A DNA stretch of 64,000 bases, taken from contig CALWGY010000007.1 of assembly GCA_944380265.1 (NCBI GenBank), positions 230-64,229 on the forward strand, given 5' to 3'. This DNA comes from an uncultured Clostridia bacterium (GTDB lineage Bacteria > Bacillota > Clostridia > Christensenellales > UBA1242). A program made the position numbers and the translations under genes. Numbering within the stretch: position 1 is the stretch's first letter; each line of letters starts with the position of its first letter. The notes beneath the pieces were generated by a model that did no database searches, was not told the origin of the DNA, and saw only the letters and a list, made by a program, of their open reading frames with translations. Shown piece by piece: positions 1 through 64,000 of this stretch.

Positions 1-84
1 GCTCCCGGCTTGTCGTTCGCTTCGCTCTCTTGCTAAAAACTTGCCACAGGCAAGTTTTCTTAACGCGTCGCCCCTTCGGCACCA
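1..84 (+). repeat. Short palindromic tRNA-associated repeat element (5' part outside the window) ending in a tRNA-Leu-like 3' tail
   Basis: 1-74 matches the reverse complement of 63763-63836 with 5 mismatches by eye. It contains the hairpin AAAACTTGCC-ACA-GGCAAGTTTT and ends CCTTCGGCACCA (acceptor 3' strand + discriminator + CCA). Confidence 0.85.
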
Positions 85-87
85 AGC

Positions 88-120
88 AAAAATAGTAACC
101 TTTGTGGGTTACTATTTTTT
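88..120. terminator. Bidirectional intrinsic terminator
   Basis: AAAAATAGTAACC-loop-GGTTACTATTTTTT, between the tRNA tail and the convergent ABC-F gene. Confidence 0.85.
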
Positions 121-130
121 TATAATTTTT

Positions 131-59476: not shown

Positions 59477-60001
59477 CTATTTAGCATCTTTTTTATTTTT
59501 TAGTTTTTCAACATATCTATTTTGCATTTTTTCCTTAATAAAGTTTTTATATTCATAAAACTGGTCATCAATTTTCATAATTAACGCATCATTGTTTGCT
59601 AAACAAATTAATAAATAATTTTTTTCTTCAATCATTTTAACAATTTTGTTGTAATCAAAACTTTGAGTTATGGTTTGATCATTAACTTTTGATGTTATGT
59701 TTAATGTGTTGCCAAACACATATTCAATTTCCACATTATGATTTTTCAAGTTTTTTTTCATTTGTAGTTTTAAAAACACTTCTGGAAGCCCCACAAACAA
59801 AATAAGCACCAAACCTGTTGCCACAAACAAACAAATTGCAATATCAATTTTTTTAAGCACCACCGAAACAATTGCTAAAATAATAAATGCAAAAGCAAAA
59901 ATTAACGAACCAATTCTGGTTTGTTTAATCATTCCTTTTTGGCTTAGCATAATTAAATCTAGGTCATATTTTGTAACGTTTTTATACATTTTTTTCTCCA
60001 A
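59477..60001 (-). CDS. YcxB-like membrane protein
   Basis: Two TM helices followed by a YcxB-like soluble domain. Confidence 0.55.
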   Translation of the reverse strand: MEKKMYKNVTKYDLDLIMLSQKGMIKQTRIGSLIFAFAFIILAIVSVVLKKIDIAICLFVATGLVLILFVGLPEVFLKLQMKKNLKNHNVEIEYVFGNTLNITSKVNDQTITQSFDYNKIVKMIEEKNYLLICLANNDALIMKIDDQFYEYKNFIKEKMQNRYVEKLKNKKDAK

Positions 60002-60134
60002 CTAATTCTAGTTTATTATACCATAATAAAATAATTTACCAAATTTAATAATTAATTAATTTTTAAAACTAAACTAATTTGACTAAATTTAAAATATATT
60101 TTAAAATTGATAAAAAAAATTTTAAGGTGTTACC

Positions 60135-60599
60135 ATGTCGGAAAAAGATGTTACCAAATACTTCACAAAACTTGGCATACAAAACAAAATTATAACTTTA
60201 AACCAATCAGCTGCAACAGTTGCACTTGCTGCACAAGCATTAAATTGTGAAGAAAAGCAAATTGCAAAATCGTTAACATTTTGGCTAAATGACCAGCCAA
60301 TTATGATTGTTTGCGCTGGCAACGCAAAAGTTGACAATAAAAAATTTAAGGAAACTTTTGGCGTTAAGGCAAAAATGTTAACCCCACCAGAAGTTGAAAC
60401 GCACATCGGCCACAAAGTGGGTGGTGTTTGTCCTTTTGGAATTAAAGATGGCGTTAAGGTTTTTTTAGATGAATCTTTAAAACAAATGGAAGTTGTTTAC
60501 CCTTCTGCTGGCAACGTTAATGTTGTAACAAAATTAACAATTGAAGAACTTGAAAAATATTCAAACTTCACAAAATGGGTTTGTGTTACAAACTATTAA
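60135..60599 (+). CDS. YbaK/EbsC family aminoacyl-tRNA deacylase
   Basis: ATVALAA, IAKSL, GGVCPFG, VFLDESL, PSAG. Confidence 0.92.
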   Translation: MSEKDVTKYFTKLGIQNKIITLNQSAATVALAAQALNCEEKQIAKSLTFWLNDQPIMIVCAGNAKVDNKKFKETFGVKAKMLTPPEVETHIGHKVGGVCPFGIKDGVKVFLDESLKQMEVVYPSAGNVNVVTKLTIEELEKYSNFTKWVCVTNY

Positions 60600-60664
60600 C
60601 CCTAAACTTTAAATTATCTTAAATTAAAATATAAATATAATAAAAAATTAAGAGGCTTAAATTT

Positions 60665-61558
60665 TTAAGTCTCTTTTTTTGCCTTGCACGGATTAACATG
60701 CACAAAGCAATCTTTAACAAAATAAAAATTGTTTTTAGTTTCAATTTCAACATTTTCAGCAATTTTGTGTGCATCAATTAACGTTAAATTTTCATTTGCA
60801 CAAATGTCCACTTCAACAAAAACTTTGTCGCCAAATTTTCTGGTTTTTAAATTGTCAATTTTCAAAACTCCATCAATTTTAACAATAACATTAAAAATTT
60901 TGTTTTCAGTTTCTTCATCGCATGCCTCATCAGTCATTTTTCTAATTGCATCAACAAAAATTGAAATCGATGCCTTAACAATAAACAAACATATAACAAT
61001 GCTTGCAATTGCATCTAAAATTGGAACACCCAACATTGCACCAACAACTCCAACCAAACTGCCAACAGAACTTAATGCATCGCTTCTGTGGTGCCAAGCA
61101 TCGGCACAAAGAGCACTTGAATTAATTTTTTTTGCTGCCCTAATTGTGTACCAATACATTGCTTCCTTAACCACAATTGAAACAACCGCCGAAACCAGTG
61201 CCAAAGTTCCAATTGTTAAAGCACCATAGTTTTGTGTAATAATTTTGTTAATGCCAACATATCCAATGCTTAGCCCTGTTGCACAAAGCATTATCGACAA
61301 AATTATTGCTGCAACACATTCAAACCTTTCATGCCCAAATTCATGATTTTTATCCGATTTTTTGTTTGAAATTTTAACGCCAAACATAACAACAAAGGTG
61401 CTTAAAACATCACTGCCTGTGTGAACAGCATCGGAAATTGTTGCAATTGAATGCGTTAAAATTCCTGCAATAAATTTAAATATCATTAACAAAAAATTGC
61501 AAATAATTGTGATTATTGAAACTTTATAAGCCAATTTTTTGTTGCTAATTAGTTCCAT
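60665..61558 (-). CDS. Cation diffusion facilitator (FieF-like)
   Basis: SDAVHTGSD, HEFGHERFE, ADAWHHRSDALSS, VHVNP. Confidence 0.93.
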   Translation of the reverse strand: MELISNKKLAYKVSIITIICNFLLMIFKFIAGILTHSIATISDAVHTGSDVLSTFVVMFGVKISNKKSDKNHEFGHERFECVAAIILSIMLCATGLSIGYVGINKIITQNYGALTIGTLALVSAVVSIVVKEAMYWYTIRAAKKINSSALCADAWHHRSDALSSVGSLVGVVGAMLGVPILDAIASIVICLFIVKASISIFVDAIRKMTDEACDEETENKIFNVIVKIDGVLKIDNLKTRKFGDKVFVEVDICANENLTLIDAHKIAENVEIETKNNFYFVKDCFVHVNPCKAKKET

Positions 61559-61666
61559 AAATTTTCTCCAAGAAAAAACAAAAATTTAAGCACAGCAATT
61601 TTGCCTGCTTAATTCATACTATTCCAAGTTTTAAAAAGTTGCTAAGAAAATATAAGTTTAGTTTAT

Positions 61667-61695
61667 AAAAAAAACACCAGTAAAACTGGTGCTTT
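61667..61695 (-). terminator. Terminator ending the oapA-ORF transcript
   Basis: Minus strand AAAGCACCAG-TTTTA-CTGGTGTTTTTTTT. Confidence 0.75.
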
Positions 61696-61745
61696 CTCAT
61701 TGTTAATAAAGAAAGATAGGTTAAATAACTTATTTGTTTAATTTT

Positions 61746-62018
61746 TTACAATGCAATTGAACTAATTTTTTTAAGGCGTTTAAAAGGAATTGGTGTTGTT
61801 CTGGTTGAAACATTTTTGTCAATCCTTAAAACTTTTGCTTTTAACAATGTGTTGTTTTTACCAAATGGAACATAAACAAAATCGTTTTCCTTTAAAGCAA
61901 CAATTTCAGTTATGTACCAATAAATTTCTCCTTTAAAATCACCATCAACAATTTCAACTTTTGCTAAATTTACAAAATCAATTTCTTGCAGTTTTCCACC
62001 TGCCATTGAATGAATCAT
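61746..62018 (-). CDS. Small beta-barrel-like protein with a KOW-like motif, directly downstream of oapA
   Basis: ATG 62018 behind AAGGTG, 17 nt after the oapA stop; KVEIVDGDFKGE and VYVPFG motifs. Confidence 0.7.
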   Translation of the reverse strand: MIHSMAGGKLQEIDFVNLAKVEIVDGDFKGEIYWYITEIVALKENDFVYVPFGKNNTLLKAKVLRIDKNVSTRTTPIPFKRLKKISSIAL

Positions 62019-62035
62019 AACTAACACCTTAATTA

Positions 62036-62818
62036 CTAATTTTGTTGATTAATAGTTTCATCTTTTAAATCTGATTTTTCACTTTCAACATCATTTAATG
62101 TTTCTTTATTTTTATCAGTAGTTATATTATCGCTAATTTTTTCAGCATTTGTTTGAGAACTGCTTAAATCAGTAACATCACTTCCCTTGTAATCTTTGTT
62201 TTTGATGTTATTTTTTTTATTTTTGTTGTTTTTGGCTGTTGCCTTACTGCTTTTCTTAAAACTAAAAATGCTCATAACTTTTCCAATAATTAAAATTATT
62301 TGGTCGCAATATTTAAGCGAAAATTTTTTCATTAAAGCCTTGCCACAAATTAAAAGTGAGGCAATAACAGCCGAAACCAACGATGCCACCACAATTCCAG
62401 CAAATTCAGACATGTTTTGTTTGATTAATGATGTTGTAACAGCAGCACCCGCAGCACCACTCAAAATTCCACAAATATCACCTAAAATATCGGCAAATAT
62501 GCTGGAAACTCGGTCAGCATTTTTTTGCAAAATTATCGCTTCTTTTGCACCTCTAACTTTTTTTGCAGCCATTGCACGAAAATTTTTTTCATCACATGAA
62601 GCAACTGCCATACCAATCATATCGGTGATAATTGCAATGATTAAAAACACAATAATAACAATAATCGAAATAATAATGCTTGCCTCGTTTAATGCAACTT
62701 CACTTAAAATACCAAATGCCATTGATAAACAAAAAGACAAAACAAGCACAATAAGTGGCCACTTAAAATATTTAGCGAACTTTGATTGATTTTTTTTCTT
62801 TCTGGGGTTTGCAGACAT
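62036..62818 (-). CDS. oapA: OLE-associated protein A (DUF21/CNNM-like TM protein) with a charged C-terminal tail
   Basis: TDMIGMA, FRAMAAKKVRGAKEAI, NADRVSSIFADILGDICGILSG (D-x3-D), GKA; lies just downstream of the OLE RNA. Confidence 0.9.
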   Translation of the reverse strand: MSANPRKKKNQSKFAKYFKWPLIVLVLSFCLSMAFGILSEVALNEASIIISIIVIIVFLIIAIITDMIGMAVASCDEKNFRAMAAKKVRGAKEAIILQKNADRVSSIFADILGDICGILSGAAGAAVTTSLIKQNMSEFAGIVVASLVSAVIASLLICGKALMKKFSLKYCDQIILIIGKVMSIFSFKKSSKATAKNNKNKKNNIKNKDYKGSDVTDLSSSQTNAEKISDNITTDKNKETLNDVESEKSDLKDETINQQN

Positions 62819-62942
62819 ATTAAAAAAATATTCTCCTTTTAGTTTTAACACTATTCTATCATATTTTATATTATATTGTTTAACATTTTTGTTTTATTAA
62901 TTAAAAATACAATAATTAACAAAACAAAAAATGTGATATATT

Positions 62943-62974
62943 AAAAAAATAGAGCCCAGATAATTAAGGGCTCT
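62943..62974 (-). terminator. Intrinsic terminator immediately after OLE
   Basis: Minus strand AGAGCCC-TTAATTATCT-GGGCTCT-ATTTTTTT. Confidence 0.8.
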
Positions 62975-62975
62975 A

Positions 62976-63535
62976 CGAAGACCACAGAATTAGTAAACCT
63001 TGTGTCATAGGTTCGGTCGGATTTCCCAGCCTTGTACTTAACGTCACCGTTAAAGCAGTTTCCTTTTAAACAAGACATAACACCGAATCGCCACTCAGAA
63101 CACACTATAATCCTACTTCTGCTAGCTACCCAGCAACAGTCTAGAAGTTTTCCTTAACAACCACATTTACTATTCGCTTGTTTTGCAAACATAGTTTCAT
63201 AGAAAGATGTGAATCAACTTTGGCCAAAATTAATTCGCATATATAATCTAATCCCCAGTATGCTCACTCAAAGCAGGCTACTCTGCACACGGCTTTTACC
63301 GCATTGCAGGTTCTTACCAAGAGAGTGGAAAATTTAATTTGCACCCTGTTTGGTCTCCGCGAAAATTGGGTCGACAGCTATATGCCATTATAACCTGCCC
63401 AATAATCTTAACTTCCAGCACAAACCCCAATTTGGGCAATCAAAGCTTGCACCAGAAACTTCATCGATGTGCCCTTCGACGCTATTTGCTTCGTCGTCCT
63501 AGCAATTGTGATTGACTAGAATACTGCATCTTCAC
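62976..63535 (-). ncRNA. ole: OLE (ornate, large, extremophilic) RNA
   Basis: Minus strand shows the OLE hallmarks UGCAGUAUUCUAGUCA, AAGGGCACAUCGAUGAAGUU.CUGGUGC, UGUGCUGG.AGUUAA, GAACCUGCAAUG and UGCAG.GUAGCCUGC.UUGAGUG. The 5' GAAGAUGCAG pairs with 3' CUGUGGUCUUC, and oapA lies downstream. Confidence 0.93.
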
Positions 63536-63541
63536 AATATA

Positions 63542-63571
63542 ATTATATCATATCACACAAAAAAAAATCAA
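63542..63571 (-). promoter_or_regulatory. Sigma-A promoter for ole
   Basis: TTGATT-18 nt-(TGa)TATAAT ending ~7 nt before the OLE 5' end. Confidence 0.75.
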
Positions 63572-63703
63572 CTACTCGCAATTGCGTCAAACATTGTCCC
63601 AAACATAACTACAAATTGTTAAGATTCAAAATTTTATTAACTTACATTTAAACATTAATTTGTTAAATTAAAGCCGTGAAATTAAATTTGCATTCTTGTA
63701 AAT

Positions 63704-64000
63704 TTGTTTATAAAAACAAAAAAACCAAGTATTTCTACTTGGCTTATTTGGCTCCTCAAGCAGGGGCGACGCGTTAAGAAAAGTTGCCTGTGGCAAGTTT
63801 TTAGCCAGTGAGCAATGCGAACGACAAGCCGGGAGCAACTTGTTTGCGGTCTGGGTCCGACAGGACCGAACCGTGGGTTCGAATCCGTGTTTTTATAGGT
63901 TTGTTTAAAAAACAAAAAAAACCAAGTATTTCTACTTGGTCTATTTGGCTCCTCAAGCAGGGGCGACGCGTTAAGAAAAGTTGCCAGTGGCAAGTTTTTA
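63704..64000 (-). repeat. Tandem 197-bp repeat of the tRNA-associated element (1.5 units visible); each unit ends in a tRNA-Asn-like 3' tail plus terminator
   Basis: TGGCTCCTCAAGCAGG at 63749 and 63946; terminator CCAAGTATTTCTACTTGG at 63725 and 63922; core matches window 1-74. Confidence 0.9.

Follow-up and report, generated by a model that had tools for sequence, protein, structure and literature searches.

A hairpin-rich, non-coding repeat at tRNA genes of gut Clostridia as a candidate mobile DNA element

How does a short repeat that carries no gene come to stand in tandem behind a tRNA gene, with every unit ending in a copy of that gene's 3' end and terminator? The question is raised by one end of a 64,000-nucleotide (nt) stretch of DNA (the window; C7:230-64229) from an uncultured Clostridia bacterium with a genome of 1.21 Mb (G000; 16 contigs, 98% complete). 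An original prediction, made from the letters of the window and without database searches, had described 197-bp tandem units at this end, placed a tRNA gene just outside it, and suggested insertion by an integrase or a reverse transcriptase encoded elsewhere. Apart from the enzyme, this prediction proved largely correct. The analysis reported here favors, at a probability of about 0.6, a non-autonomous and non-coding mobile DNA element that would depend on a helper in trans or on a host function, and whose insertions carry the signature of a fold-back plus a duplication.

The minus strand of positions 63703-64000 holds one complete unit (B) and the beginning of a second (A). All the motifs quoted in the original prediction are found on this strand, namely GGATTCGAACCCACGG, GGTCC-TGTC-GGACC, ACTTGCC-ACA-GGCAAC, TTAACGCGTCGCC, CCTGCTTGAGGAGCCA, and the hairpin CCAAGTAGAAATACTTGG followed by a T-run, as is the 197-nt spacing: a repeat finder returned a direct repeat (63674-63803 and 63871-64000, 85% identity, spacing 197) and, on the longer contig, three in-register copies with spacings of 197 and 178 nt. 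No tRNA was found by ARAGORN within the 64-kb window, and the gene expected just beyond it is present: a minus-strand tRNA-Asn(GTT) occupies C7:64353-64427, at a distance of 124-198 nt from the window end. Along this strand, tRNA-Asn(GTT) and the terminator belonging to it are followed first by unit A, whose core is shortened (178 nt in all), and then by unit B (197 nt). Both units follow one plan, in which a left arm leads into a conserved core (~85-105 nt), and the core into copies of the tRNA 3' end, starting from a CC, and of the terminator with ~15 nt more. The tail CC-TGC-TTGAGGA-G-CCA, correctly recognized beforehand as having the layout of a tRNA-Asn, corresponds to the gene from C61 to its 3' end. 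The recreated tail and terminator, previously put at ~60 bp, form a direct repeat of 62 nt with three occurrences (behind the tRNA, behind unit A, and distal); the match ends at ...TAAACAAA, beyond which the three copies differ, and the duplication extends ~20 nt past the T-run of the terminator. The complete unit scored 134 bits (E=1e-44) with R1, a covariance model built from 23 copies and comprising three hairpins, and the repeat is no chance match. The features of this end of the window and of the adjoining contig are as follows.

63703-63764, minus strand: distal direct repeat, with CC, T-stem 3' strand, acceptor 3' strand, G and CCA (63764-63749), terminator hairpin (63742-63725), T-run, and ~15 nt more
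63765-63866, minus strand: core of unit B (R1, 134.1 bits)
63867-63889, minus strand: left arm of unit B, with the reverse complement of a T-arm in diverged form (CACGGATTCGAACCCAC) and then direct GGTTCG
63890-63961, minus strand: middle direct repeat between units A and B, with tail (63961-63946), terminator, and spacer
63962-64000, minus strand: 3' part of the unit A core, cut by the window end (R1, 58.4 bits, model positions 69-125)
C7:64230-64427, outside the window: remainder of unit A, another repeat copy, and tRNA-Asn(GTT)

A third copy, absent from the original prediction, lies at the opposite end of the window (1-90, R1 69.5 bits) and belongs to a different tRNA gene. Starting behind tRNA-Leu(CAA), this array runs off the end of contig C10 and finishes at the opening of contig C7. 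Its cores are arranged head to tail every 100 nt and meet at the junction GCGTCG/GTCC, at least six units being visible (end of C10; L003 1233-1681); core-only tandems of this kind were not seen at the other loci examined. The core at the Leu locus is 93-95% identical to that at the Asn locus. Both loci therefore have a common core, yet the arms and the tail belong to the local tRNA, Asn or Leu.

1-72, plus strand: last core copy of the core-only tandem array with a 100-nt period (R1, 69.5 bits)
73-125, plus strand: copy of the tRNA-Leu(CAA) tail CCTTCGGCACCA (73-84) and of the Leu terminator, both matching the corresponding parts of the C10 tRNA-Leu gene

Two features go beyond what had been predicted, an inverted copy of the target to the left of each core and a target that consists of a CC within a stem-loop. 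The left arm begins with the target's reverse complement, which spans the insertion point (typically -14 to +3), and continues, after a loop of 0-4 nt, with a direct copy from about -11 to -5; in size, ~12-21 nt are inverted, and 5-13 nt are then copied directly from the target's left side. In unit B, where the arm has diverged, CGAACC can pair with GGTTCG. In 28 of 76 copies, 12-21 nt match in inverted form with one mismatch or none, against an estimated chance expectation of ~0.006 per copy. In fresher copies elsewhere, the arm is the exact reverse complement of the T-arm of the local tRNA; as the reverse complement of a hairpin retains its stems, such an arm equals the T-arm with the loop alone flipped. 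At a threonine tRNA with an unusual T-loop (GGTCCG), the variant is present in both parts of the arm. The inverted arm is absent at the empty tRNA-Asn sites of five genomes of the same genus, and a near-perfect inverted T-arm stands downstream of none of the 36 tRNAs that ARAGORN listed in the genome of the window, which indicates that the arm arrives with the insertion.

The target was defined by a census of 123 copies, dereplicated from 162 loci. A tRNA lies within 400 nt of 82 copies (upstream in the same sense in 67, upstream in antisense in 10, and downstream in 5), and the nearest tRNA is further away in two. With tRNA genes and their 400-nt margins estimated at ~3% of such a genome, the association would be ~25-fold above chance. 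In 68 of the 99 copies with at least 250 nt of upstream sequence, what follows the core is found again 68-281 nt upstream; these 68 copies and the 67 same-sense ones agree with the proposal that copies would sit behind tRNAs with a matching tail. The repeat measures 12-114 nt (78 copies having one), and in 67/70 non-tandem cases a CC stands directly 5' of it in the intact copy. Most sites fall into the T-arm (~47 copies; TTCRANNCC/, or a CC ending the T-stem, the slash marking the junction), followed by the anticodon arm (11 copies; AAAATCC/) and the D-loop in antisense (9 copies; GCTCTACC/AACTGAGC), with a few others, including one tmRNA 3' end; altogether about two dozen tRNA species are targeted, on either strand. 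The insertion also costs the target 1-4 A/T bases (AAT, AT, A), which would otherwise separate the left junction from the CC. The target is a CC in a stem-loop rather than the tRNA 3' end itself. At the tmRNA (L177, G215:C31), the copy behind the 3' end has a matching arm and tail (GCGGGGAGT... and CCCCGCATGTCC..). Shorter versions, consisting of the 52-79-nt 3' module, were also observed in other repeated, hairpin-bearing sequences that are not tRNAs, in metagenome-assembled genomes (MAGs) of higher GC content (L078, L085, L144, L145, L099, L100, and L134), where the tail is the reverse complement of the upstream hairpin strand.

Filled and empty sites were compared as evidence of movement. 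Within one genus, the tRNA-Asn site is filled in the genome of the window and in G002, G005, G006, and G009, and empty in G001, G003, G004, G007, and G008. A second case comes from G266, a complete, single-contig genome of 2.6 Mb from another family, with 16 R1 matches, in which the copies examined do not stand at tRNAs. Here, 7 of the 24 copies of an unrelated multi-hairpin repeat have a perfect hairpin whose loop is occupied by a module of 69-72 nt (GGGAATCC, module, CCCCCTTGAG), two of them with an extra piece of ~110 nt; the other 17 are empty and have AATT, ATT, or TATT in the place of the module, one being divergent. These insertions are simple, without duplication. The receiving repeat is a separate sequence (G266:C1, L178-L223) with 20 of its 24 copies on one strand (GTCATCGACAAAGTCGATGAC, TTCAAGGGGGAATCCAATTCCCCCTTGAG, and so on) and without an Rfam match; on a chromosome of 2.61 Mb, the stretch from 21 kb to 1.31 Mb contains all 16 R1 matches and 21 of the 24 repeat copies. 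Simple insertion is also seen in the pseudo-tRNA-Ile copies of G028, G026, and G065, which have a direct copy of 15-23 nt on the left and no adjoining inverted T-arm.

The relationships among cores point the same way. Cores at different tRNAs of one genome have a median identity of 0.84 (n=13, up to 0.95), compared with 0.78 for the same tRNA across genomes (n=155) and 0.78 for different tRNAs across genomes (n=1599). A tree of 60 cores required 36 changes of tRNA label, against 43.9 in shuffles (minimum 38) and a lowest possible number of 16. Together, these figures indicate that the cores do not form tRNA-specific lineages.

A second type of small tRNA-linked insertion was observed behind tRNA-Ile (G000 C6:1180-1500, and also L023, L026, and L033). 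It consists of an inverted copy of the anticodon arm, split by a 37-nt piece with two hairpins, and then a direct partial tRNA from the anticodon loop on; in G000, only a remnant of the core (GCTCCAAA) is left in the T-loop of this partial copy. L013 has a further short core, followed by a tRNA-Ile tail of its own.

The core, about 70-125 nt across copies, is a set of hairpins. In unit B it comprises hairpin Pa (GGTCC-TGTC-GGACC), hairpin Pb (GCAA..TTGC), an optional 20-nt insert, and a long imperfect 3' hairpin (GGC..CTAAAAA-CTTGCC-ACA-GGCAAC-TTTTCTTAACGCGTCGCC). Covariation was examined in 118 copies (105 distinct) aligned to R1. Standard pairs occupy 93.4% of the pair cells, against 70.5% in shuffles, a percentage biased towards the model by the fitting of the alignment to R1; compensatory changes, found at 19/19 pairs among the 105 distinct copies, are visible in the raw MAFFT alignment too, and the pairing signal is lost when the partners are slid. 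Mutual information identified two long-range pairs, G60-C107 (GC 88, CG 6) and G67-C101 (GC 89, TA 7), from which it follows that the 3' module forms one long imperfect hairpin with its end 2 nt before the junction. This imperfect hairpin of ~50 nt, ending 2 nt before the right junction, is the indispensable part of the element. Among 1781 cells, there are only 21 G-T and 34 A-C combinations, without strand bias, and a C-C mismatch is conserved in 33 rows. Functional RNAs usually accept wobble pairs on one strand only. As wobble cells are rare and unbiased between strands, the near-pure Watson-Crick pairing points to hairpins that are probably read as DNA or on both strands.

The element is widespread. 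R1 gave 281 matches within the family of the window's genome, in 92/151 genomes and 44/58 genera; apart from a few fragments at contig ends they are compact (110-150 nt), and no long version of the element is among them. A sample across the order gave matches in 44/151 genomes, from 13 named families plus others. Searches by blastn detected it in 23 of another 36 genomes from this family, and the restriction to one family that this method suggested (0/24 other families) is an artefact of sensitivity, R1 matching order-wide. A parent element that seemed to emerge from split blastn matches to the halves of the core was likewise discarded, the matches being complete, divergent, compact copies. 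A degenerate pattern found 90 loci in a public genome collection, with titles that are almost all of uncultured Clostridia, Clostridiales, Christensenella, Christensenellaceae, or Catabacter; the remainder are a few Firmicutes, Eubacteriales, Ruminiclostridium, and Lachnospiraceae, and three contigs of one Eggerthellaceae bin. Nearly all the genomes are MAGs, in which arrays collapse or end contigs, so that copy numbers are lower bounds.

None of the collections searched supplied a name for the element, in agreement with the original prediction, which knew of none. The unit had no blastn match in phage and plasmid collections, and two degenerate patterns had none among the viral contigs of IMG/VR. 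Rfam returned just OLE and a chance match to sroD in window positions 60000-64000 (E<=1), and nothing besides a tRNA at four other loci (E<=0.1). In the literature, search listings and abstract openings contained no description of such an element. The OLE match (RF01071, 393.8 bits, E=2e-113) is a gene for full-length OLE RNA at window positions 62962-63548 on the minus strand, directly downstream of the element array and ~150 nt on, in what is a reduced 1.2-Mb genome of gut Clostridia.

No enzyme gene lies within the element, as had been stated in advance, and the surroundings did not supply one. Clustering of 932 open reading frames from around ~150 loci yielded housekeeping genes only and no recurring recombinase; the genome of the window also lacks RVT_1 and Y1 matches. 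The four tyrosine recombinases of this genome are one XerS-like protein, one short protein, and two that stand beside ordinary tRNA-integrated islands; the sequence upstream of the XerS-like gene has, by eye, no resemblance to the core. Neither Y1 nor RVT_1 was found in the complete genome G266, nor Y1 in G273, which bears copies; among five high-copy genomes tested, Y1 occurs in three and RVT_1 in one, and no related hairpin was found at the Y1 loci of three other genomes. One of the ordinary islands in the window's genome is ~3 kb long (C1:24411-27562), at tRNA-Lys(CTT), and its repeat begins in the anticodon loop; the second (C2:7909-26716, 18.7 kb) stands at tRNA-Ser(TGA), with a repeat beginning in the T-loop and the integrase gene beside the tRNA. 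Core and inverted arm are absent from both.

On the reading favored here, the proposed mobile element enters directly 5' of a CC, in or beside the loop of a stem-loop, and takes the place of the preceding 1-4 A/T bases. In these small genomes, the preferred stem-loops are those of tRNA and tmRNA genes, with the T-loop, the anticodon arm, and the D-loop read in antisense as sites. A dispensable hairpin receives a simple insertion, as in G266. The products seen at an apparently single-copy tRNA consist of an intact gene with its terminator, a fold-back arm, the core, and a second gene copy from the CC, 12-114 nt long and mostly reaching through the terminator. Every product seen at apparently single-copy tRNA genes does retain a whole gene. 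Repeated events or unequal exchange would account for the tandem arrays. What the data show directly is the anatomy, target rule, filled and empty sites, distribution, DNA-type covariation, and lack of the usual enzymes; we infer that insertion acts on folded single-stranded DNA. In a co-oriented, heavily transcribed tRNA gene, the sense strand serves as lagging-strand template and is at the same time the non-template strand, and most copies lie in the same sense as the tRNA. The duplication and the fold-back may be produced when replication or repair involves snap-back or template switching, and selection would then remove gene-breaking products and leave only those with a whole tRNA. The enzyme would act in trans or be a host function. 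Conservative site-specific recombination, CTX-like single-strand integration, staggered-cut transposition, target-primed copying, and symmetrical tandem inversion duplication were each considered, and none gives the exact order of segments.

A bolder formulation is put forward tentatively, as something that could be true but that we would not expect to be: a new class of bacterial mobile DNA, consisting of a geneless hairpin module of ~70-125 nt that would insert in a replication-coupled manner into single-stranded stem-loops beside CC and build its flanks from the target. The flanks would be the flipped target hairpin and the duplicated gene end, tRNA and tmRNA genes would be spared, and the work would be done by a host replication or repair enzyme or by an unrecognized helper.

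Several observations weigh against a mobile element of this kind. In 39 of the 123 copies there is no tRNA in the fetched locus, many of these copies being at contig ends or in arrays and some in other contexts, and in 31/99 copies the tail does not recur. In the window's genome, searches for RVT_1, Y1_Tnp, the TnpB zinc-ribbon domain, IS110, resolvase, rve, and Cas1 found nothing; a MAG, however, may be missing plasmids and phages, and with them a helper acting in trans. No model that was tried yields the inverted arm step by step. The likeness of cores within a genome could reflect gene conversion instead of recent movement, and the strong conservation across an order could also signify a host function.

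Among the other explanations, the one that survives best is a miniature integrative element mobilized by a tyrosine integrase in trans, in which a circle of one ~200-bp unit would re-integrate Campbell-style at the matching 3' part of a tRNA and so build arrays; we consider it unlikely. It would leave the tRNA intact at one end and a displaced 3' fragment at the opposite end, tandem arrays are common, the T-loop and the anticodon loop are reportedly the classical sublocations of integrases, which the sites used here fit, and the window's genome has four tyrosine recombinases and two ordinary tRNA-integrated islands. In G002, moreover, the terminator adjacent to the tRNA differs from the distal one, which resembles the terminator at the empty site of G007; the case is ambiguous, however, both being related hairpins. 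The integrase route suggested originally fits the junctions poorly, given repeats that vary from 12 to 114 nt, a loss of 1-4 target bases with no shared overlap sequence kept at the two junctions, and insertions into antisense D-loops and a non-tRNA hairpin. It is further opposed by the lack of tRNA-specific core lineages and of an integrase gene recurring nearby, and it leaves the inverted arm unexplained.

It is less probable still that the repeat is a structured non-coding RNA or DNA signal useful to the host in the processing, termination, or regulation of tRNA operons, with tail and antisense arm being functional rather than traces of mobility. Sequence and structure are kept across an order, an intrinsic terminator ends each unit, the RNA fold is slightly stabler than shuffles (z = -2.4), and the array here stands directly upstream of the OLE RNA. 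A function of this kind is difficult to reconcile with a patchy distribution, as 59/151 genomes of the family have no match and five tRNA-Asn sites in a single genus are empty, with tRNAs that vary among genomes, and with both orientations relative to the tRNA. The same applies to the empty and filled copies of a non-tRNA repeat and to the near absence of wobble pairs, without strand bias; the spacers contain no promoter-like sequence by eye, and Rfam gave no match.

A retroelement resembling a short interspersed nuclear element, whose RNA would carry a tRNA-like CCA tail, be reverse-transcribed, and be inserted by target-primed synthesis, is highly improbable. The precise 3' junction with CC microhomology next to a variable 5' junction would suit it, as would the variable length of the target duplication, and a circular template copied in a rolling manner could underlie the core-only tandem of 100 nt at the Leu locus. 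The reverse-transcription route of the original prediction is nevertheless not upheld: RVT_1 is absent from the genome of the window and from the complete G266 and occurs in one of five high-copy genomes; the repeat runs ~20 nt past the T-run, and the copied flank is thus not limited to transcribed sequence; antisense insertions lack a tRNA-like RNA end; and the covariation is Watson-Crick only. An assembly artefact or chance repeat, to which one might attribute the Leu array that breaks the assembly by ending C10 and starting C7, can be dismissed, since the same architecture is present in independent assemblies of more than 90 genomes, single-contig ones included.

If the interpretation as a mobile DNA element is correct, reduced gut Clostridia of ~1 Mb, with hardly any recognizable transposases, would carry an active small parasite or a tolerated passenger, in which the problem of inserting into an essential tRNA would be solved by always leaving one whole gene. 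The combination of features at the junctions (a fixed CC, few A/T bases lost, a flipped target hairpin, and a variable duplication) was matched to no described pathway of transposition or integration and is a concrete handle on an undescribed DNA transaction. In practical terms, the arrays break MAG assemblies at tRNA loci, the pseudo-tRNA fragments can mislead annotation, and R1 is a ready marker for this bacterial order.

Comparison with known systems shows partial similarities to several of them. Like tRNA-integrating islands and cis-mobilizable elements (CIMEs), the repeat has an intact tRNA, a displaced tRNA 3' part at the far side, tandem accretion, and T-loop or anticodon-loop sites, and its direct repeats with a tRNA 3' part beside an intact tRNA are those of a CIME. 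Unlike them, it is 125-200 bp long and has no integrase, its repeats vary, bases are lost, the target is copied in inverted form, and antisense and non-tRNA targets are used; no full-length parent and no conservative exchange at a fixed sense-strand tRNA site were found.

Folded sites of the integron attC and CTX type resemble the element only in the evolution of hairpins, and the window's genome has one XerS-like gene. MITEs (miniature inverted-repeat transposable elements), repetitive extragenic palindromes (REP) and bacterial interspersed mosaic elements (BIME), Rickettsia palindromic elements, and Correia elements are similarly short, non-coding, hairpin-rich, multi-copy, patchy, and without a transposase of their own. 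In contrast to these families, the present element lacks terminal inverted repeats of its own, as the left arm varies with the target and is complementary to the target and not to the right end, and its duplication of 12-114 nt is neither short nor fixed, the arms being copied from the target. IS1397 and ISKpn1, which insert into REP loops, recall the seven filled copies of G266 in that an extragenic hairpin loop is the target, but they are autonomous members of the IS3 family with fixed duplications of 3-4 bp, whereas the element described here is geneless. IS200/IS605 elements, palindrome-associated transposable elements (PATEs), and REP sequences with RAYT share with it a subterminal imperfect DNA hairpin with conserved mismatches, in which structure rather than sequence is kept, a short, sequence-defined target, and an insertion preference for the strand presumed to be single; these elements give no target duplication, and neither the window's genome nor G266 has a Y1 transposase. 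Finally, the tandem inversion duplications (TIDs) of Salmonella and the flip/flop termini of parvoviruses, although general products of replication that are not bound to a conserved inserted core, offer analogies for the arrangement of the flanks, namely a direct-inverted-direct order, hairpin junctions, and an arm that equals the T-arm with its loop flipped.

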